NCBI GenBank assembly: GCA_964525635.1
Contig: CAZGJX010000142.1
Span: 1-8,893, forward strand
Origin: an uncultured archaeon
GTDB taxonomy: Archaea; Asgardarchaeota; Lokiarchaeia; Sigyniarchaeales; SOKP01
Reading direction: 5' to 3'
Length of the DNA stretch: 8,893 bases
Below the pieces are notes generated by a model. The model did not search any database. It had not been told where the DNA came from and worked only from the letters and a program-made list of their open reading frames with translations. The number at the start of each line of letters is the position of its first letter. The first letter of the stretch is position 1. This document shows, piece after piece, positions 1-8,893 of the stretch. The position numbers were made by a program, and so were the translations under genes.

Positions 1-1120
1 ATGCTGTATCAGACCAATTACTAGGAGGAATTGTTCCTTTAACATTAATAAAAATAGCTTTATTTGTTTCATATCGAGGTAATTCATTTGATAAAATTCT
101 AAGGTTTTTCGCTAGATTTCTTATATAATCAAAATATATTTCTTTAGCATATCTAGTTATACCATTTAATTGAATAATTGAAATTGCAGCACTTATATTT
201 TTAAAACATAATATATTTAGGAGTAGAGCATGTTCAAATGCAAACTTAAGAATTCCCTTTTTTTTGGGTAATAATGCATAAAGACCATAACTTTTAAAAT
301 TCATATTGTCTTGAATTTTTTGAATTTCAGATGCATTTAGTTTAGTAATTTCTTTATTTGGATCAATATTTAAATCATTCAACTTAGTCTTAATTATAAT
401 ATCGCTTTCTCCACCTATTCCCTTAATAAATGGTAAGATGCTTAGTTTTAATCCATTTTTTATAGAATTATGCATATTTCCAAATAACAGTAATCCTTCT
501 TTCTCTTCAAAAATTTTTTCATTTAATAATTCTTGATAAATTTCTTTATTAAAAGATTTAAGTTCATTCATTGGTTTTAGAGAGTCTCCAGCAATTCCAA
601 TAATAGTTGGCCATCCTTGATTAATGATTTGAGGTTTTAATCTTTTAGCAAACATATAAGCTAAGGTTGCTCCTGCTATATGATCAAGTCCATCAAATCC
701 ATACAAAGTTGGATTAATAAAAGTAAGGTTTTCTGGATATTCATCTTTATCTATATTACTATCAACTTCATGATGATCAAGAATAAAAAATTCTTCTTTT
801 CTATTTTTAATTATTGGAACTAATTCTGTAAGATTTGAACCTACATCTGTAAAGATATAAGCAATTTTATTTGTATTCCTCTTCGCAAGTATTCCTTTTA
901 GATAATTATCCCATGAAACAGATCTATTATAAATAAAATAATCATAACTTAAATTCATTCTATATAATAAATTTTGTATGAGGTATAGACAACTAATACC
1001 ATCAGCATCGTTATGAGAAATTGCAATAACTTCATTAAAGTTATTAGATAGATCACTAAAGGTATTTACACCATTATTAAGATCCTCTAAAAATTTACTT
1101 CGATCTGGTTCATTTTCCAT
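1..1120 (-). CDS. DHH-family phosphoesterase, archaeal RecJ/Cdc45 (GAN)-like; C-terminal part runs off the left edge of the window
   Basis: Absent from the supplied ORF track because it has no stop inside the window. Hand translation of the minus strand from ATG 1120-1118 stays open to base 1 (about 373 codons): MENEPDRSKFLEDLNNGVNTFSDLSNNFNEVIAISHNDADGISCLYLIQ...KEEFFILDHHEVDSNID...FDGLDHIAGATLAYMFAKRL...WPTIIGIAGDSLKP... The HNDADG and LDHH motifs are the DHH-superfamily signatures shared by RecJ-like nucleases. The DHHA1 part would lie beyond the edge. Confidence 0.8.
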   Translation of the reverse strand, partial: MENEPDRSKFLEDLNNGVNTFSDLSNNFNEVIAISHNDADGISCLYLIQNLLYRMNLSYDYFIYNRSVSWDNYLKGILAKRNTNKIAYIFTDVGSNLTELVPIIKNRKEEFFILDHHEVDSNIDKDEYPENLTFINPTLYGFDGLDHIAGATLAYMFAKRLKPQIINQGWPTIIGIAGDSLKPMNELKSFNKEIYQELLNEKIFEEKEGLLLFGNMHNSIKNGLKLSILPFIKGIGGESDIIIKTKLNDLNIDPNKEITKLNASEIQKIQDNMNFKSYGLYALLPKKKGILKFAFEHALLLNILCFKNISAAISIIQLNGITRYAKEIYFDYIRNLAKNLRILSNELPRYETNKAIFINVKGTIPPSNWSDTA

Positions 1121-1424
1121 TTATATCATTTTCTTAATTTAAAATACCTTTTATATCTCAATAAACATAAAATAACACTAATATACACATAAAATTATTA
1201 TTTAGAATATTCAATTTTTAAGAAAGGTTCAATTGCTTATATTATTAATAATTTATAACTCTTACAAATATAATCATAATAATAATATATGGTTATTTTA
1301 ATTTTTATCTATTAAGATATAAGATTTCATTACAGAAAATGAAAATTAAAATTATATGAAAGATTAGAAAAATTAATTTTAATTTTTAGTATTAAAAAAT
1401 TAGAAGTAATTTATTGGTTCAAAA

Positions 1425-3140
1425 ATGAGAAAAAATAAAAATAGATTAATGATTTTATTTGGAATTATTTTAATTTTTACTATTTTCATAAGTAGCTTTT
1501 CACCTCTCAATGTTTCAAGTAAGAATAATGGTGATACAGTAATTAATGATGTTGATATTAATCAAAATAATAAGAATTTAAATACTCAGGGATTTACTGA
1601 AGATGATTATACTTCTATTCTGAAAGAAGAATTAAGTAGTTTGGGAAATATAACTGTTCTCAATGCATCTTATCATAACGAAGGTTATTTTAAAAAAGGA
1701 GATTACCCTCATTTAAATGAAGATTATGAGAGTTATGCTCTAAATAGTACATACTACAATACGACATTTATCGAGTCAATTGAACACGCATCGGTAAATT
1801 ACTTAAAAAAAGAATATTTTGAGAATGATGATATGTATGTTAAATTAAATGATAGTGTTGTTTTTGAATATAATAATACTCTAGCTGGGGGTATAGGTGG
1901 ATTAAAAGGATTTATAGTATATCATCCGAAATTAGTAGTAGAGGAAGTTTTGGAAATATATATTAACAACACTAAAATTGATGAGGATCAATATTCAATT
2001 TTAAGCTATAATTTTCTATATTTCAATTATTATGAATATAATGATAATAGAAACAATGATACATTTACATTAGACTTTATCTATTCTCATAAAATCGAGG
2101 TAAAAAATTGGGAGATATCTCAAAATGATATTGATGATTTAATCGCTTATAATTCTAATTCCAATCTCGAAGCAGATTATAATTACTTTTTTGAAATTCG
2201 TAGTGATCAATATAAAGGAGCAAATCTTGGTAGTTCTACCGAAAATTCTAATTTAACTGTAAGTTTAAATGTTAGTCTATATGAGAGAGGTAATTTAGTT
2301 AATTTTAATTTAGCATTAAATGATCAGGAAGTAGATGATATAGTAAATTATGTAGATATGAATAATAATATTATAATCCCTCTATCAGATAATTTTACTT
2401 GCGATAATCATGAATTTTCATTGAATTTCACAAGTAATTTTGAAATTGAGTTTTTAGAAACAGTTGGTGGAAGTTGGGCTATAGATCGATTAATAGCTTC
2501 CAGAGACATAAGAGAAAGAATATACTTCCCATCAGTTATTTCAGGTCCAGAACATTTATTAATTAAATTCTCATTTTATGAATCCTCAATTTATATAGAA
2601 CAATTTAAAGATTGTTATTCGCTTTTTGATAGAGAAGTTGATGTAATAGAAGCTAATAAATCAGATGATGAATCAATTCCAAGAGGTTTAAAAATAAAAA
2701 CACCTTCTCTAATCATTGGAGAAAATGCATGTCCTTTTATGATAAAATATCAGACAAATAAAACAGTCAGAATAATTATAACGGATAATATTAATATGCC
2801 TGTTTGGGATTTAGATGTTGATTTATATTATTACAGTGCATCCTATGGAACATATGTTTCAAAAAATATAACTCAACCAGTAGCTCCTTTAATTGCAAAT
2901 GAGAATGGTGAAATTGTCTTAAGAAATATTCCTCTTGGAGAATATACATTTCGTATATATCGAGAGGGTAGTTTTATTAAAGAAAAGACTATACATATAA
3001 CAACGTTAGAACCTGAGATCTTTTATATTCATACAAATATCCCTCATTTCCCAAGTATTATTCTAGTATTTAGCCTTATGAGTGCCTTATTATTTTTTGT
3101 TGGATTTATTGCATATGTTAAAAATAAAAAAAAGAAATAA
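1425..3140 (+). CDS. Asn-rich, sequon-dense membrane-anchored extracellular protein of unknown function, with a probable prealbumin/carboxypeptidase-regulatory-like beta-sandwich near the C-terminus
   Basis: 571-aa ORF. The N-terminus has a basic stretch plus a hydrophobic signal/anchor (MRKNKNRLMILFGIILIFTIFISSF). The C-terminus has a TM helix followed by a Lys tail (FPSIILVFSLMSALLFFVGFIAYVKNKKKK). There are many N-x-S/T sequons. The segment NENGEIVLRNIPLGEYTFRIYREGSFIKEKTIHI resembles CarboxypepD_reg-type domains; this is recalled from memory, not searched. Confidence 0.75.
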   Translation: MRKNKNRLMILFGIILIFTIFISSFSPLNVSSKNNGDTVINDVDINQNNKNLNTQGFTEDDYTSILKEELSSLGNITVLNASYHNEGYFKKGDYPHLNEDYESYALNSTYYNTTFIESIEHASVNYLKKEYFENDDMYVKLNDSVVFEYNNTLAGGIGGLKGFIVYHPKLVVEEVLEIYINNTKIDEDQYSILSYNFLYFNYYEYNDNRNNDTFTLDFIYSHKIEVKNWEISQNDIDDLIAYNSNSNLEADYNYFFEIRSDQYKGANLGSSTENSNLTVSLNVSLYERGNLVNFNLALNDQEVDDIVNYVDMNNNIIIPLSDNFTCDNHEFSLNFTSNFEIEFLETVGGSWAIDRLIASRDIRERIYFPSVISGPEHLLIKFSFYESSIYIEQFKDCYSLFDREVDVIEANKSDDESIPRGLKIKTPSLIIGENACPFMIKYQTNKTVRIIITDNINMPVWDLDVDLYYYSASYGTYVSKNITQPVAPLIANENGEIVLRNIPLGEYTFRIYREGSFIKEKTIHITTLEPEIFYIHTNIPHFPSIILVFSLMSALLFFVGFIAYVKNKKKK

Positions 3141-3147
3141 GTAAAAT

Positions 3148-3477
3148 TTGATTGTAATTTTCATTGATGACATAGAAGATTTTGTTCAATTTCTGGATAA
3201 ACGTATAATGAATGAGATTTTTTTCGAATTCAGGAAAAAAAGTAAAACAGGTGATCTATCAAATGAAGTTGAGTTTGAAATATTTCTTCATTTTTTATCT
3301 AAAGTAGAAGAATCTATGGTCTTATATGAAACAAAAATTAACATTACTGACTTAAGTACTTCCTTAAATGAAGAGGAAGTAAAAACTAAAATACAAGAAA
3401 TTTTAAGTAAGGTTAATCCTTCTCTTAAATTAATAAAAGGGAAGATCCGTGAGATTTTTCTTTCGTATTCTTTTTAA
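3148..3477 (+). CDS. small hypothetical protein; start uncertain (TTG at 3148, or in-frame ATG at 3208)
   Basis: 109-codon ORF starting 8 nt downstream of the preceding gene on the same strand. No recognisable motif. The track start is TTG, and the first ATG is codon 21 (MNEIFFEF). Its stop overlaps the aIF2-gamma stop on the other strand. Confidence 0.4.
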   Translation: MIVIFIDDIEDFVQFLDKRIMNEIFFEFRKKSKTGDLSNEVEFEIFLHFLSKVEESMVLYETKINITDLSTSLNEEEVKTKIQEILSKVNPSLKLIKGKIREIFLSYSF

Positions 3478-4666
3478 TTTATTCTCTTTCCATAACCAAT
3501 TAGACGATATCTTCGATTTATGATCCTTGAGATAGCAAAAATAAAATTATCAGGTATGCAAACAGGAGGATTTAATTGTATAACATAAGTATCTTTTAAA
3601 ATTTTTTTTACAATTCCGGCGGTCTTTTCAGTTCCTACAACCATAAGTAATCTTTCTCCATGTTTTAAATTATGGATTTTTATCATCTCTTCGGAACCAA
3701 TAACTCTATCTAAAAGATGAACTTCTAGTTCTACTTCCTTAATTATTTCTGGCAAATTATCTAATTTCCCTGCTAAATGACCGATTAATGCATCACCTTT
3801 AGTTAATGCGGGATCTAGTTGTGTTCCAATCCCTATAAGCCCTCCTGGCTTAGCTTCAGTAAGAAAATTACTTCCTTGACTTAAACTTGTGATGATAGAT
3901 TTTATTGGAATATAATCATCTTTTATTTTTAATCCTGGGCGTATTTCTATTTGTTCTCTTAAACTTATTTTTCCTTTTAATACAGATCCTCCAACAACAC
4001 CGCCAACTAGTTTCTCAATTTCAGTTCCAGGTTTATTTACATCAAAAGAACGAGCTATTAAAAATTGAAATTCTTCACTTTCATCAACCTCAGGAGTAGG
4101 AATAAATTCATCAAATGCTCTCACAATAAGCTCAATATTAGCTCCAAAAACAGCAGAGATAGGAATTATTGGTGCATTTTCAGCTACCGTTCCTTTTATA
4201 AAATCTTTAATTTCTTTATAATTTTCAAGAGCTTCTTCTTTATTAACAGCATCAATTTTATTTTGAATAATTATTATATTTTCTATTCCTGCGATATTTA
4301 ATGCAGCTAAATGTTCTCTTGTTTGAGGTTGAGGACAAACCTCATCAGCAGCAATTAATAAACAAGCTCCATCCATAAGAGATGCTCCACTTAACATTGT
4401 CGCCATCAATATTTCATGTCCAGGAGCATCAACGAAGGAGATATTTCTTTTAAATTTCATTTGTCCTTGACAGTTAGGACATTTATATCGAGGTTCTCCT
4501 TTCTTTCTTGAACTTTCTATCATATGTAATGTTGCATATTCATCACATTCTGGACAATATAAAATTGTTGCATTTGAATATCCTAATTTTATAGAAATTC
4601 CTCTTTCTTGTTCTTCTGAGTGCCTATCGGTCCAATCTCCTGTTAAAGCTTTGACTAATGTGGTCT
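3474..4666 (-). CDS. eif2g: translation initiation factor aIF2 gamma subunit, exon 2 (last two bases of the P-loop Lys codon through the stop)
   Basis: The frame of ORF 3474..4523 stays open upstream to 4664. It reads (K)TTLVKALTGDWTDRHSEEQERGISIKLGYSNATILYCPECDEYATLHMIESSRKKGEPRYKCPNCQGQMKFKRNISFVDAPGHEILMATMLSGASLMDGACLLIAADE...IIIQNKIDAV...AENAPIIPISAV...RYRLIGYG. These are the a/eIF2-gamma hallmarks: G2-G5 GTPase motifs (DAPGH, NKID, SAV), a four-Cys zinc knuckle, and domains II/III. The track's M at 4523 is an internal residue. Confidence 0.9.
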
Positions 4667-4695
4667 ATATGGGAAATGCTGAAATAATCATCTCA
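4667..4695 (-). other. 29-nt bulge-helix-bulge (BHB) intron inside the aIF2-gamma coding sequence
   Basis: Minus-strand sequence UGAGAUGAUUAUUUCAGCAUUUCCCAUAU. Removing it joins A4696 to AG4666-4665, which creates AAG (Lys) and restores GHVDHG-K-TTLV in frame. The flanks form a central helix AUGG(4701-4698)/CCAU(4672-4669), 3-nt bulges UA|U and AU|A, an inner 6-bp helix GAGAUG/CAUUUC and an outer 8-bp helix. Details are in the findings. Confidence 0.75.
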
Positions 4696-5110
4696 TACCA
4701 TGATCCACATGTCCTACCAACCCAATGTTGCATTCTGCTTGTTTTATAATTATTTTTTGCATTTTTTTAGCAGAAATATCATCTTTTTTAGGTTTTTTAG
4801 AGATTAGTTTTGTTTCAACTTCAATTTTTTCTAAATGCTCTGTAACTTCTTCAAGTTCTTCTTCAATTTCTATTAAATCTTTTTTTGTATCTATTAAATC
4901 TCCTATTGTATCTTCTAAATCTTCTTCTGAATTCTGTAATAATTTTTTTGCATCCTCTATATATCTTAATGCTGTAGATTCGCCGATACCTTTAACATTT
5001 AATAATTCTCCTAACTTTATATTGGCTATTTTTTCTACGGAATCTATTCCTATAGCTCTCATACGTTCCGCTGTAGTAGTACCTATACCTTTTATTCTTT
5101 CTAACTCCAT
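4696..5110 (-). CDS. eif2g: translation initiation factor aIF2 gamma subunit, exon 1 (about 120-aa N-terminal HhH/acidic/Lys-rich extension plus the start of the G domain up to GHVDHG and the first base of the Lys codon)
   Basis: ORF 4688..5110 ends ...KQAECNIGLVGHVDHG, then MR-stop read from intron sequence. ECNIGLVGHVDHG is the start of the a/eIF2-gamma G1 P-loop. Two HhH motifs lie upstream (IKGIGTTTAERMRAIGI, VKGIGESTALRYIEDA). An alternative internal start, M117 (ATG 4762-4760), would give a canonical-length factor. Spliced CDS is 415+1193=1608 nt, i.e. 535 aa. Confidence 0.85.
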
Positions 5111-5128
5111 AATATTACTTTAAATTTA

Positions 5129-5148
5129 CTATTTCAATCTATTTCAAT
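5129..5148. repeat. perfect tandem direct repeat, 2 x 10 bp (CTATTTCAAT CTATTTCAAT), 19-38 nt upstream of the aIF2-gamma start codon
   Basis: Read directly: 5129-5138 and 5139-5148 are identical. On the gene strand the repeat is ATTGAAATAG x2. Function unknown; it lies in the expected promoter/5' leader zone. Confidence 0.6.
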
Positions 5149-5535
5149 ATTACAATAAAACATGTAAATTATTATTAAGAATGCATTATGAATAATAAAA
5201 CTATTCCAAATTACTTTATGATATCTAAAAAACCGTTATGAGGAACAAGAGTAAAAATTGATAAAATCTATCAAATTAATAAGGAAAGATGATATTTTTA
5301 CAACAAGTTAGTATTTGTCTTTCCAAATATCCAATTATTTTTTTAATTCTTAATGATAAAATCTTGGTTAATTAAGATGTAAAATTCCATTTTAAAAATT
5401 AACTTTATTTAAATAATAACTACTTACTGAAATAACTATATTAATTTATAATAGTTTTATCTTGAATAATTTTAGAAAAAGCATCTAAATAAAGATAAAA
5501 ATAAAAAGAATTTTGACCTTTTTTCTAAACTGAGT

Positions 5536-5772
5536 TTATGAATCTGATTTAAGTGTTTCAATCGTTTTTATTGCGCCAGGTTTTTTTTCTGGTTCAATAT
5601 AAGAAACCCCAAGTTGACTATCTAAAAAGAAAGTCGATGTTTTTCCACAAGTATCTTCATTATGATGAATATAAACAGGAGAGGGATATTTACTATTATC
5701 AATATCATCCTTATTTACTCTAAAGACAATTTTTTGACTACAATGGGGACAAACATTAAATTTAAGTGGCAT
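5536..5772 (-). CDS. small hypothetical protein with a possible CxxC...HH...C zinc-binding site
   Basis: 78-aa ORF: MPLKFNVCPHCSQKIVFRV...VYIHHNEDTCGKTS... It is divergent from the C25-like gene. It contains a CPHC knuckle plus downstream His/Cys. No family was recognised. Confidence 0.5.
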   Translation of the reverse strand: MPLKFNVCPHCSQKIVFRVNKDDIDNSKYPSPVYIHHNEDTCGKTSTFFLDSQLGVSYIEPEKKPGAIKTIETLKSDS

Positions 5773-5874
5773 TTGCTTTTTAAATCAATACATTCTTTCT
5801 TAAAATAAGAAAATTCTTATTTTTAAATTCTTATTTAATTAAATATAAAATTTATATTTTCATATTGAACTGAA

Positions 5875-8019
5875 ATGTTTTTGAAAAAAAGGAAAGAGAG
5901 AAATCTTATAATCTTTTTAATTTTATTCTTATGTCCTATTATATTTGGGAATTATTCTATAAACCTTACTCAAAATCAGATTTATTCTACTCAAATTAAC
6001 ACTTCAGCTAGTATTGCTGAAATAGATTTCTCTCATTTACCTGAAATCGATTATGATGCTTTAAATAAGAGTTGGTATAAACCTAAAATAGAAATGTTGA
6101 TCATTGCTCCAGAAGGAAGAGGGGATTTCATACTTGAATTAGAGCCATTAGTGGAATGGAAAAATCAAAAAGGTGTAAAAACAATAATTTTAGATAATTA
6201 TTCCTTATATGGAGGGAGAGATCCTCAAGAAAGTATACGAAATATGATCAAATCCTTTTATGAATCAGACGGAATTCGATGGGTTTTATTAGCTGGAGAT
6301 GCTCAAGATAATTTACTTCCAATCAGATATGTATATAATCCTGATACAAGAGATATAGGTAGTTCTGAAATTGTAGGTAATCTTGTTTCTAAACCAACAG
6401 ATTATTATTACGCGGACCTCACAGGAGATTGGGATGAGGATGAAGATAATTTATTTGGAGAATCTCAAGAATATAATTCTCATGGTGTTGATGAAATTGA
6501 TTGGATCCCTGAAGTATATGTTGGTAGACTACCAGCTAATAATGCAATAGAATTAGCTAAAATGGTACAAAAAACACTTAAATATGAGAAGAATCCTGAT
6601 GGGGGAGAATGGATGAATAGAATGTTATTAGCTGGAGGGATATCAGATACAATATCTGAAGAACCACCTGATGGTGAAGATGAATCTGTTTTAACAACTT
6701 ATATATGGCAAAATTATGTGCAAGATGAAATGAATTTTACTCACCTTTGGAGATCCACATCAGCATACACACCTCCCGATCCAAAAGAACCTCTTAATCA
6801 AACTAGTTTTATAGATAATTTTAATGAGGGTTATTCTACAATGATGTTCGCGGGCCATGGTGCTCCTTTTTTATATAATGATAAATCAGGGACAATCTAT
6901 ACGAACACAAACGCTCAAAATTGCAACAATACGAATAATCCATCACTTATATATGCTGATGCTTGTTCAACCTCTACATATGATATTGTTTCAGGTACAG
7001 GTAATGATAATAGTATTGGAGAAATATTAATTAATCAATCTAATAAAGGAGCAATTGGTTATGTAGGTGCTCTTAGAGTTACATGGTATTATACTGATGA
7101 TTATGATTTGGAAAGGTTAAATCGTGCAAATGCAAAATTATTTTGGAGAGAATTTTTTGAAGAAAAAAAATTCCAACAAGGAAGAACATTATATGACTCA
7201 AAGGTAACCTATATGAATACAGATTATTATAAATATGAAAGAATTCTCCCCGCCCATAGAGAAGCAGATCGTAAAAATCTCTTAACATATTGTCTCTTGG
7301 GTGATCCTGAGGTGGATATATACACAGGGATACCAAGTGAGGTAGACAATCCTTTTGAACCAAATTACTACGAAGGACAATTACTTAATATTACTATAAA
7401 AGACAATCTTGATAGAATTAGTCCATATCCTAGAGTTCATCTGAAAACAGATGATGGTATATACCATACGGAATATGGAGATAAAAATGGAAATCTGCTT
7501 ATTCGCCTGCCTCCTGGAGCTGGAAAAATATATAACGTCTCAATTTCAGGGCACAATCTTATAATCTCAAATTTTAGCTTTACAACTATAGCAGACACAG
7601 AAAGTCCAGAGATATTATATCATAGTTTAACACCAAGAAATCCCACATTACAATCTCATTTAAATTTTACAGTTATATCCCAAGATAATGAATCAGGTAT
7701 AGAAGGTGTTTTTGTACTCATTTCAAAAGATAATTTTAATAGTTATTTCTATCAAAGATATCCCTATGATTGTCATAAAGATGAGACCGAATTTAATTGT
7801 ATAACCAATCGTTTTGAACCAGGAGATTATAGTTATCTCTATTTCATTCGAGACTATTTGAATCATACAGACATTGTCTATGAATCTACTTTTAAATTTT
7901 CTATTCCAACACCTGTAACGTATTATTTACTTATCGGTAGTGTAGTTGGTATTGGAATAATAACAATTATTTCAATGTATACTGTATATTGGAGTATAAA
8001 AAAAAAAAAGAAAGATTAG
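5875..8019 (+). CDS. membrane-anchored peptidase C25 (gingipain)-like cysteine protease homologue, clan CD
   Basis: 714-aa ORF with an N-terminal signal/anchor (MFLKKRKERNLIIFLILFLCPIIFG). The C25-type N-terminal region reads MLIIAPE...WKNQKGVKT...IRWVLLAGDAQDNLLPIRY...TDYYYADLTGDWDED...EVYVGRLPANNAIELAKMVQKTLKYE. A candidate catalytic dyad is His328 in MMFAGHGAP (CAT 6856-6858) and Cys364 in LIYADACSTS (TGT 6964-6966). The 36-residue spacing is similar to gingipains. The C-terminus has beta-rich domains, then a TM helix and a KKKKKD tail. Confidence 0.8.
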   Translation: MFLKKRKERNLIIFLILFLCPIIFGNYSINLTQNQIYSTQINTSASIAEIDFSHLPEIDYDALNKSWYKPKIEMLIIAPEGRGDFILELEPLVEWKNQKGVKTIILDNYSLYGGRDPQESIRNMIKSFYESDGIRWVLLAGDAQDNLLPIRYVYNPDTRDIGSSEIVGNLVSKPTDYYYADLTGDWDEDEDNLFGESQEYNSHGVDEIDWIPEVYVGRLPANNAIELAKMVQKTLKYEKNPDGGEWMNRMLLAGGISDTISEEPPDGEDESVLTTYIWQNYVQDEMNFTHLWRSTSAYTPPDPKEPLNQTSFIDNFNEGYSTMMFAGHGAPFLYNDKSGTIYTNTNAQNCNNTNNPSLIYADACSTSTYDIVSGTGNDNSIGEILINQSNKGAIGYVGALRVTWYYTDDYDLERLNRANAKLFWREFFEEKKFQQGRTLYDSKVTYMNTDYYKYERILPAHREADRKNLLTYCLLGDPEVDIYTGIPSEVDNPFEPNYYEGQLLNITIKDNLDRISPYPRVHLKTDDGIYHTEYGDKNGNLLIRLPPGAGKIYNVSISGHNLIISNFSFTTIADTESPEILYHSLTPRNPTLQSHLNFTVISQDNESGIEGVFVLISKDNFNSYFYQRYPYDCHKDETEFNCITNRFEPGDYSYLYFIRDYLNHTDIVYESTFKFSIPTPVTYYLLIGSVVGIGIITIISMYTVYWSIKKKKKD

Positions 8020-8304
8020 GTGGAAAATATTTAATTCATGATATTTATTTTTCCTTATATTATTTCATACTACAATTCATATTTATAAAAAAAATAATAA
8101 TATCTAATTTCAAGTAGCTATTTCAATAACACATTTAAATTTAACGGTTAATATCAGTAAAGTTTAATTAGTACGTATAATTAATTCTATTCAATTTAGA
8201 CCATTATATTTTAAGTTATCATTTCATTGAAATCGAGACACTTAAATATTAAATATGGTTGTTTTAGCCATATAAAAAGATAGCATTAAGCTATAACGCT
8301 GGAA

Positions 8305-8417
8305 GTTAAACTTGAAAGCGTTGACAATAGTACTTCTGTTATTATCAGTGGGAAATGTCAAACTGTGAGTTCGCTTACGGTCATAGTCTTCAAGGAAAAT
8401 ACCCGGACCCATCCGAA
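8305..8417 (+). rRNA. rrf: 5S rRNA body segment 1: loop B 3' side, helix II 3' strand, helices V/IV with loop E, helix I capped by UUCG, loop A, helix II 5' strand, helix III 5' strand, and loop C up to CCGAA
   Basis: Landmarks in order: GUUAAAC (8305-8311); CUUGAA (8311-8316) pairing UUCAAG (8389-8394); AGCG (8317-8320); GACA (8323-8326)/UGUC (8356-8359); AGUAC (8329-8333); CUG/CAG hairpin (8336-8348); GGGAAA (8350-8355); ACUGUGAG (8362-8369)-UUCG-CUUACGGU (8374-8381); CAUAG (8382-8386); ACCCGGACCCAUCCGAA (8401-8417). Confidence 0.8.
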
Positions 8418-8447
8418 TGGCTTTCTAAATTATAGAATCTCCGGGAA
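8418..8447 (+). other. 30-nt BHB intron within loop C of the permuted 5S rRNA
   Basis: Sequence UGGCUUUCUAAAUUAUAGAAUCUCCGGGAA. Central helix UCCG(8412-8415)/CGGG(8442-8445), bulges AA|U (8416-8418) and AA|C (8446-8448), and an inner hairpin GG..UUCUA-AAUUA-UAGAA..UC. Removing it makes CCCAUCCGAA+CCCGGAA contiguous. Confidence 0.65.
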
Positions 8448-8454
8448 CCCGGAA
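8448..8454 (+). rRNA. rrf: 5S rRNA body segment 2 (CCCGGAA: end of loop C, helix III 3' strand, and start of the GAAGUUAAAC element completed by back-joining to 8305)
   Basis: After both joins the sequence reads ...ACCCGGACCCAUCCGAA|CCCGGAA|GUUAAACUUGAA..., which matches the conserved 5S helix III/loop C/loop B core. Total body is 113+7=120 nt. Confidence 0.7.
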
Positions 8455-8481
8455 ACGTTTCTTATATGGCTGAATATATTA

Positions 8482-8489
8482 TTTTTTTT
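8482..8489 (+). terminator. oligo-T tract (T8), a likely archaeal transcription terminator for the 5S precursor
   Basis: TTTTTTTT lies 11 nt downstream of the closing helix. Archaeal RNA polymerase terminates at oligo-T runs. The background is AT-rich, so specificity is limited. Confidence 0.4.
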
Positions 8490-8721
8490 ATTATCTTAAT
8501 TTATAATTTGTAGTTGAAATTCTAAAGATTGAATCTTGATAAATAAATCTTTCAAGAATCGTATTAAAATTGCTTTTTTTTTCTTTCAATGAGGTTTTGA
8601 TTCATTTTTAACCTTCTTATTATATCTTAATTTTTAATAACCTACTACTTAAAATTTTTACCAGATCCTTTTAAATATCAAAAAATCAGTTTTTTACTTA
8701 AAACCAATGAGAGAGTATTAA

Positions 8722-8893
8722 ATGAGATCGAATAAAAAATTACCAATAGTAATTGCAATTTTAATTATCTTTACGCTTCCTGCTTTTTCTAATGTTTCTA
8801 CTGCACAGGTTACTGTTGCTAATAATTCTCGTTATCAAACAGTTAGAAATACCGGATATTGGAAATTACGATTTTATGGACCAAATCCATGGG
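8722..8893 (+). CDS. N-terminus of a secreted/surface protein (partial; continues past the right edge)
   Basis: ATG at 8722, then MRSNKKLPIVIAILIIFTLPAFSNVSTAQVTVANNSRYQTVRNTGYWKLRFYGPNPW..., open to the window end. It has a basic n-region plus a hydrophobic core typical of a signal peptide. It is not in the ORF track because it has no stop. Confidence 0.55.
   Translation, partial: MRSNKKLPIVIAILIIFTLPAFSNVSTAQVTVANNSRYQTVRNTGYWKLRFYGPNPW

Follow-up and report, generated by a model that had tools for sequence, protein, structure and literature searches.

A candidate bulge-helix-bulge intron within the P-loop lysine codon of aIF2-gamma in Lokiarchaeia

The window analysed here is an 8,893-nucleotide (nt) stretch of contig CAZGJX010000142.1 (assembly GCA_964525635.1), which comes from an uncultured archaeon of the Lokiarchaeia, has a G+C content of 27% and carries on its minus strand a gene for the translation factor aIF2-gamma. 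The frame of this gene is interrupted exactly in the nucleotide-binding P-loop. The upstream open reading frame (ORF; 5110..4688, 140 aa) contains GGA CAT GTG GAT CAT GGT, which is G-H-V-D-H-G with the Gly codon at 4699-4697; this codon is directly followed by A4696, the run reading ATG AGA TGA, and the ORF stops two codons past the P-loop Gly (UGA 4690-4688). The downstream aIF2-gamma frame (TTLVKALTGDWTDRHSEEQERG...RLIGYGKRIN) is a different one, open from 4664 to the stop at 3476-3474; its first codons are ACC ACA TTA GTC (TTLV), and it is immediately preceded by UAG (T4667-A4666-G4665). The codon of the invariant P-loop Lys is absent from both ORFs.

Between the two frames lies an insert of 29 nt, 4695..4667 on the minus strand (TGAGATGATTATTTCAGCATTTCCCATAT). 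Its removal in silico joins A4696 to A4666-G4665, which gives AAG for Lys139 and a single ORF of 535 aa (5110..3474) with the junction reading GHVDHGKTTLVKALTG. The boundary of the insert is unique in the window, because a 29-nt deletion shifted by +1 gives GGT ATG ACC without Lys, and one shifted by -1 gives GGT TAG with a stop. In the spliced protein, Pfam recognises HHH_5 at residues 2-56, GTP_EFTU from residue 127 (1e-31), GTP_EFTU_D2 and eIF2_C (1e-22). The best solved structure is aIF2-gamma of Pyrococcus abyssi (1kk0, E = 2e-143, residues 6-415), and the junction aligns gaplessly as GHVDHGKTTL with solved structures of aIF2-gamma. Only the spliced sequence has the full set of features that identify an aIF2-gamma, namely a G domain with the GHVDHGKT P-loop, a domain II, the eIF2_C domain III and similarity to these structures over its full length.

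The N-terminal part of the gene (4760-5110, minus strand) encodes a helix-hairpin-helix (HhH) domain, HHH_5, and a Lys/Glu-rich linker fused to aIF2-gamma, so that the protein has ~520 aa instead of ~410. The fusion is found in nearly all Asgard matches and is absent from the aligned solved archaeal and eukaryotic e/aIF2-gamma structures. By itself, exon 1 would make the HhH domain as a free peptide.

The RNA around the insert is predicted to fold into a bulge-helix-bulge motif (BHB) with an outer helix (h) and an inner helix (h'), that is, hBHBh' (Table 1). The unconstrained minimum-free-energy (MFE) fold of 4650-4718 on the minus strand is the full hBHBh', with -16.2 kcal/mol. The 5' strand runs through the outer helix, the 4-bp helix, a 3-nt bulge and the inner helix, and the 3' strand through the inner helix, the 4-bp helix, a 3-nt bulge and the outer helix; thus a central 4-bp helix, two 3-nt bulges on opposite strands and flanking helices h and h' of at least 2 bp each are all present. 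According to Marck and Grosjean (2003), hBHBh' is reportedly the arrangement of archaeal tRNA 37/38 introns. Cutting between bulge nucleotides 2 and 3 is the rule applied to the intron of cbf5, where it was verified by cDNA (PMC2738675). The cuts that the structure predicts by this rule, 4696|4695 and 4667|4666, are in silico the exact positions needed by the coding sequence. A sequence-only reading of this DNA had already proposed the aIF2-gamma identity, the Lys codon missing from both ORFs, the 29-nt deletion that creates AAG and restores the frame, the hBHBh' pairs and the two cut sites. Its coordinates and base identities proved correct to the base; the Pfam domains (GTP_EFTU, eIF2_C) and the 1kk0 match bear out the gene, the translations of both ORFs the missing Lys, and the 535-aa ORF together with the failure of the neighbouring one-base shifts the deletion. 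Each pair that it listed is present and the set equals the unconstrained MFE fold, and the cuts that follow from the structure coincide with the junction required for coding.

Table 1. Features of the 8,893-nt window: the interrupted HhH-aIF2-gamma gene, elements of the predicted BHB fold and neighbouring genes.
Feature	Position	Strand	Remarks
Exon 1 of HhH-aIF2-gamma	4696..5110	-	ATG at 5110; residues 1-138 and first base of Lys139
Exon 1 domain content	HhH_5 about 4943-5107	-	HhH_5, acidic Lys-rich linker, G domain start through GHVDHG
29-nt BHB intron (predicted), UGAGAUGAUUAUUUCAGCAUUUCCCAUAU	4667..4695	-	phase 1, between Lys codon bases 1 and 2
Exon 2	3474..4666	-	A4666-G4665 finish Lys139; residues 140-535 (TTLVKALTG...RLIGYGKRIN); stop 3476-3474
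Outer helix h, 5' strand	4702..4710	-	exon 1, His-Val-Asp-His codons; 8 bp (4710-4702 with 4665-4658), one bulged A (A4704)
Outer helix h, 3' strand	4658..4665	-	exon 2: G of Lys, Thr, Thr, first base of Leu
Central 4-bp helix H, 5' strand AUGG	4698..4701	-	exon 1; partner 4669-4672
Central 4-bp helix H, 3' strand CCAU	4669..4672	-	intron
5' bulge UA/U	4695..4697	-	predicted cut A4696/U4695
3' bulge AU/A	4666..4668	-	predicted cut U4667/A4666
Inner helix h'	4673..4694	-	GAGAUG 4694-4689 with CAUUUC 4678-4673, one G-U; 10-nt loop 4688-4679
C25 (gingipain-like) peptidase	5875-8019	+
75-78-aa Zn-ribbon-like ORF	5536-5772	-
109-aa ORF	3148-3477	+	convergent with HhH-aIF2-gamma and overlapping its stop
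Membrane protein, about 570 aa	1425-3140	+	no Pfam match
DHH/RecJ-like gene	2-1120	-	runs off the window

The insert recurs in relatives. The best protein matches of the window belong to Asgard archaea labelled Promethearchaeota or Lokiarchaeota and are mostly uninterrupted HhH-aIF2-gamma proteins of ~520 aa. Three matches of 397 aa begin at MVKALTG, and their contigs (L001-L004) show the same split, a 29-nt insert at the same place and the same neighbours, which are a C25 peptidase, a 75-aa ORF, a 109-aa ORF and a membrane protein of about 565 aa. A DNA-pattern scan of metagenomes (GTGGATCATGGNA...AGACCAC...), which was too narrow, returned one locus only (L005). A protein scan of a genome collection with window-specific peptides found 11 loci, one of them with the intron (L007, Promethearchaeota bin106), and also supplied the intron-free controls L006 and L008. 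When the 140-aa exon-1 ORF served as the query, nearly all matches were HhH ORFs of 113-146 aa that stop soon after ...ECNIGLVGHVDHG, with a few junk residues in between, e.g., MN, IY, MIMSFRHFP, IKETIRLIP or TSWKFLPFP, each followed by the stop. Two limited protein searches combined gave 94 clusters (90% identity) of such exon-1-type ORFs, which include KKN00364 (LCGC14_1138550) of the Loki's Castle metagenome and also contigs of 498 and 504 kb; full-length proteins were not among the matches of these short queries, which could not reveal spliced forms.

With the representative contigs L017-L030, the number of distinct intron-bearing lineages rises to 13, the window included. The insert is 29 nt long in 12 of them and 30 nt in the remaining one, always stands after GGN+A (phase 1), and its removal in silico gives an intact protein of 512-537 aa in all 13, each ending in the conserved RLIGYG tail. 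Altogether, more than 20 contigs with divergent inserts carry the intron, from independent NCBI, JGI, ENA and Logan assemblies made from different samples with different assemblers.

The 30-nt version (L026 1265-1294 and L027 577-606, one lineage) keeps the frame and has an in-frame UGA, and its Lys codon is still missing before excision. This lineage also has a G.A mismatch in the central helix and a 5' bulge that looks 4 nt long. Three short database proteins, P0200, P0145 and P0219, run past GHVDHGKTT and are then out of frame or end in LSLIHI, which we take to be translated sequencing adapter; they look like contig-end or sequencing-error artefacts rather than further introns.

The conservation of the fold was evaluated in an alignment of 13 sequences, for a structure that comprises the outer and central helices and, of the inner helix, the first two pairs. 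In this structure 87.4% of the cells are paired; in controls with the 3' partners displaced by 1-3 columns the share is 31-45%. Of 500 shuffles, 0 reached the observed pairing or covariation score. Three pairs are changed on both sides, in 9 cells. The outer and central helices are made of codons, so that the same bases have to serve both the fold and the protein, and the covariation is seen at synonymous sites. Two pairs of the outer helix join synonymous third positions, 4709-4659 (His3/Thr3; C-G 4, U-A 4, U-G 1) and 4706-4662 (Val3/Thr3; G-C 6, A-U 2, U-A 2), and both switch by double changes. RNAalifold, run with no structure supplied, gives a partial de novo recovery, in which the outer and central helices reappear with their cores in unchanged register; it misses the inner helix because that helix shifts register between lineages. 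The structure of each lineage was scored by explicit pair-by-pair evaluation. The central helix has 4/4 pairs in 10/13 lineages and three pairs plus G.A in the others. Of the 8 outer pairs, 5-8 are formed. In 12/13 lineages quite different sequences give an inner hairpin of 5-9 bp, with L019 as a weak exception. In every lineage the 5' bulge is [U/A]A followed by the cut and any base, and the 3' bulge is A/U, then A/U/G, then the cut and A. The comparison proposed earlier, to see whether the insert of relatives is accompanied by compensatory changes that maintain the BHB, came out positive: 13 lineages retain the insert, and their compensatory changes preserve the helices.

The intron itself has the consensus uGA.u..gU.AuuUcg.ca.UUCCCAUAA. 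Averaged over pairs of lineages, the introns are 62% identical and the 4-fold-degenerate sites of their genes 38%; the value reaches 84% in the last nine intron bases UUCCCAUAA, which comprise the central-helix strand and most of the 3' bulge. The identity above that of 4-fold sites argues that the insert is under purifying selection. Among the intron-bearing orthologues, whose synonymous divergence ranges up to saturation, the ratio of nonsynonymous to synonymous substitution rates (dN/dS) is 0.065-0.12 in exon 2 and 0.17-0.29 in exon 1. These ratios indicate that both exons are under purifying selection and that the gene is functional.

We consider, with a probability of about 0.85, that the insert would be a genuine archaeal BHB intron inside the coding sequence of HhH-aIF2-gamma, cut by the splicing endonuclease EndA and joined by RtcB. 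Excision at the RNA level is preferred because it is the only route to a functional protein. The EndA of Asgard archaea is reported to be an (alpha-beta)2 enzyme with the L1 loop and a broad specificity, accepting relaxed or non-canonical BHBs (PMC5829648), and the tRNA genes of Lokiarchaeota and other Asgard archaea contain many introns at non-canonical positions (PMC4989117, PMC11291895). Because such an EndA accepts relaxed BHBs, EndA cleavage with RtcB ligation is proposed. The gene would first be transcribed colinearly, and the pre-mRNA would fold locally into hBHBh', with an exon-exon outer helix, the AUGG/CCAU helix, the intron hairpin and the two 3-nt bulges. EndA would then cut each bulge after its second nucleotide, and an RtcB-type ligase would join the exons, creating the AAG Lys codon and restoring the frame, while the 29-nt intron would be released, probably as a circle. 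The functional GTPase would be made from the spliced mRNA only, and unspliced mRNA would give a truncated HhH-only polypeptide of 120-140 aa. Where there is no earlier stop, the exon-1 frame reads ...CAU UUC CCA UAA through the 3' end of the intron (e.g., L017 2873-2901). The conserved 3' end of the intron thus supplies an in-frame stop, formed at the 3' bulge, so that unspliced mRNA would never be read through into exon 2.

Several observations weigh against this interpretation. The fold energy is unremarkable in comparison with shuffled sequences (z = -1.2), and when the window was scanned loosely for BHB geometry, 20 motifs were found, where shuffled sequence had 15.3 on average. Some lineages have relaxed motifs: the central helix contains a G.A mismatch in L001, L002 and L026, the inner helix is almost absent in L019, only 5/8 outer pairs are formed in L017, L022 and L026, and the 5' bulge is apparently 4 nt long in L005 and L026. 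None of 16 predicted spliced proteins, looked up by exact sequence in a public collection of 15 billion proteins, was present; this is a weak negative, as Asgard transcripts are seldom assembled at full length. The genes of EndA and RtcB are neither in the window nor in the fetched flanks.

Since loose BHB motifs occur at chance frequency in AT-rich DNA, the presence of the motif is not used as evidence. What is significant is the coincidence of both cuts with the gene-repairing positions, together with conservation and covariation across lineages, and not the motif itself. The chance that both cuts fall on the gene-repairing pair, which was pre-specified, is roughly 15.3/(2 x 8893 x 109), or ~8e-6, as a rough figure.

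The explanation that comes nearest to splicing by EndA and RtcB is that the excision from RNA is real and is carried out by other machinery, for example by a different pair of endonuclease and ligase or by a ribozyme of unknown kind. The lineages with a relaxed motif (central G.A, weak h or h', 4-nt bulge) would suit such machinery. However, the geometry matches an EndA substrate exactly, conservation falls precisely on the 4-bp helix and the bulges, and relaxed BHBs are taken by (alpha-beta)2 enzymes that have the L1 loop, as those of Asgard archaea reportedly do (PMC5829648), which makes different machinery quite unlikely. A self-splicing group I or group II intron was rejected, as the core of such a ribozyme takes up hundreds of nucleotides, far more than the 29 nt of the insert. 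A search of Rfam at a permissive threshold (E <= 1) gave no relevant match to the insert.

Decay of the gene has also been considered, i.e., that the 29-nt insertion inactivated this copy and that an intact aIF2-gamma elsewhere does the work. The broken frame, which gene callers split into two genes, and the intron-free alleles of close relatives would fit a pseudogene, but the 13 lineages, saturated at synonymous sites, still keep both halves open to the RLIGYG C-terminus, dN/dS lies at 0.065-0.29, and the length, position and fold of the insert are kept with compensatory changes. A decaying copy would be expected to accumulate further stops and indels, and this locus stands in the same conserved neighbourhood as the intact orthologues, so a pseudogene appears very improbable.

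We give as little credence to ribosomal recoding, in which the ribosome would pass the 29 nt by bypassing (as in T4 gene 60) or frameshifting, with no splicing. A short, hairpin-structured insert with an early stop (UGA 4690-4688) superficially resembles a bypass cassette. However, there are no matched take-off and landing codons, as Gly is GGU or GGA and no GGN stands at the 3' end, and landing on CAU 4671-4669 would lead to the wrong frame. Frameshifting is impossible because the exon-1 frame closes (4690-4688) before the exon-2 frame opens (after 4667-4665). Furthermore, the invariant Lys codon exists only once the RNA has been joined, and it is the BHB helices and bulges that are conserved, not the codon identities.

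Least credible of all are separate translation of the two halves, as an HhH-beta1 peptide and an N-truncated G protein that would function with no splicing, and a sequencing or assembly artefact. Gene callers do place a start, TTG or ATG, shortly downstream (MVKALTG...). However, the P-loop Lys-Thr, which to our knowledge is essential for GTP binding in all translational GTPases, would be in neither half, and every solved aIF2-gamma structure has GHVDHGKTT aligned at the junction. An artefact is excluded by the divergent inserts on more than 20 independent contigs, which come from different samples and assemblers.

The intron-bearing and intron-free genes are intermixed. In a neighbour-joining tree of the core protein, sequences with the intron are dispersed among those that lack it. 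The exon-2 protein of L017 shares a 90%-identity cluster with several uninterrupted proteins of 529-533 aa. Another close relative is L031 (2886-4436), a genomic contig on which the neighbours are the usual divergent ones and the gene is uninterrupted; the variable N-terminal 119 residues of its product are 96% identical to those of the intron-bearing ORF P0172. Such presence and absence among very close relatives argues for recent precise losses (or gains) of 29 nt. Since the inserts are recognisably homologous, one ancient gain in the Loki-type clade followed by many precise losses would be the simplest reading of these sequences; repeated gain at one site may be an alternative history. The close pairs concern L031 and the clusters of P0009/P0234 and P0074/P0172. 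In the intron-free L031, the helix-forming codons have drifted and read CAC GTC GAC CAC GGA AAA ACA.

The neighbourhood of the gene is conserved in Loki-type genomes (window 1-8893 and L002, L003, L017-L031; Table 1). Scans of the window and of 23 loci found no tRNA genes. Apart from the insert, the strongest hit of the BHB scan (outer 11, inner 7) is at 1135-1160 on the minus strand, upstream of the DHH gene. It was rejected as a BHB, as its MFE fold is not a BHB and its hairpin is not significant (z = -1.4), and it is most likely a chance match. The intergenic DNA upstream of the DHH gene (1201-1500) is extremely AT-rich, with 13.7% G+C.

Among archaeal mRNAs, the only EndA substrates known according to the authors of two papers are cbf5 in Crenarchaeota, with an intron in the coding sequence, and HVO_1309 in Haloferax, with one in the 5' untranslated region (UTR), and more have been expected (PMC7714728, PMC10485636). 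The statement of the sequence-only reading that cbf5 is the established coding-sequence example is accurate by these two sources. Searches of the full-text literature, which do not cover subscription journals, found neither aIF2-gamma nor any other protein-coding gene of Asgard archaea reported to contain an intron. The BHB pre-mRNA intron is thus a kind already known, and it is the gene (aIF2-gamma) and the phylum (Asgard/Promethearchaeota) that are new.

The cbf5 intron of Aeropyrum, Sulfolobales and Desulfurococcales is the closest parallel, as it is also a short BHB in an essential, RNA- or translation-related coding gene, with borders likewise between the second and third bulge nucleotides (Watanabe 2002, Yokobori 2009; PMC2738675). 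It is also in phase 1 and splits a catalytic Asp codon, as the aIF2-gamma insert splits the P-loop Lys codon (PMC2738675); the shared phase may be fortuitous, or a common bias may govern where such introns are inserted or retained. The cbf5 hosts likewise have a hetero-oligomeric (alpha-beta)2 EndA, and the distribution of their intron is likewise patchy, with gains or losses among relatives. In contrast, most cbf5 introns are unconventional or relaxed BHBs, while the aIF2-gamma motif is mostly a strict hBHBh' with tRNA 37/38 geometry (PMC2738675). The splicing of cbf5 has been shown by cDNA and in-vitro cleavage, whereas we infer that of aIF2-gamma. The HVO_1309 intron of Haloferax volcanii is likewise an mRNA BHB processed by the splicing endonuclease, and it was recovered as a circular RNA (PMC7714728). 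It differs in its 46 nt, its place in the 5' UTR, where the frame is uninterrupted, its alpha2-type EndA and in being experimentally proven, as against the predicted aIF2-gamma intron. In size the insert resembles the intron of the Lokiarchaeota tRNA-Sec, which has 31 nt (PMC4989117). The canonical tRNA 37/38 intron has the same strand order, 3-nt bulges and cut positions, and the host in aIF2-gamma is instead an mRNA.

In eukaryotes, HAC1 and XBP1 undergo an unconventional, cytoplasmic and spliceosome-independent excision of a very short mRNA intron by IRE1, with flanking stem-loops, a tRNA ligase and a change of frame. RtcB has been linked to XBP-1 splicing (PMC8718801). This system differs in its endonuclease (IRE1), its recognition motif and its nature as a regulated stress switch. 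One could imagine that the aIF2-gamma intron acts as a checkpoint which makes synthesis of this carrier of the initiator tRNA dependent on EndA/RtcB activity, an Asgard counterpart of the regulated splicing of the HAC1/XBP1 type; unspliced mRNA would then yield a separate HhH-only polypeptide, as its translation would always end within the intron or at the in-frame UAA of the 3' bulge, and the phase-1 site in a catalytic codon, as in cbf5, would reflect selection for an all-or-nothing switch. We regard such a regulatory role as speculative and rather unlikely.

If splicing by EndA and RtcB is true, this would be the second known tRNA-type intron in an archaeal coding sequence after cbf5 (per PMC7714728, 2020; PMC10485636, 2023), located in a universally essential translation factor and exactly in its nucleotide-binding loop. 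Automatic annotation would then systematically mis-call this essential gene, splitting it into two ORFs across dozens of Asgard genomes, and the mis-called aIF2-gamma would affect marker-gene sets and completeness estimates. The insert would also provide a natural, conserved and very short substrate for studies of Asgard EndA and RtcB, and the many close pairs with and without it would form a system for studying precise intron loss. Furthermore, as the Asgard archaea are the closest known archaeal relatives of eukaryotes, an intron of this kind in one of their essential genes would bear on ideas of the origin of split genes.

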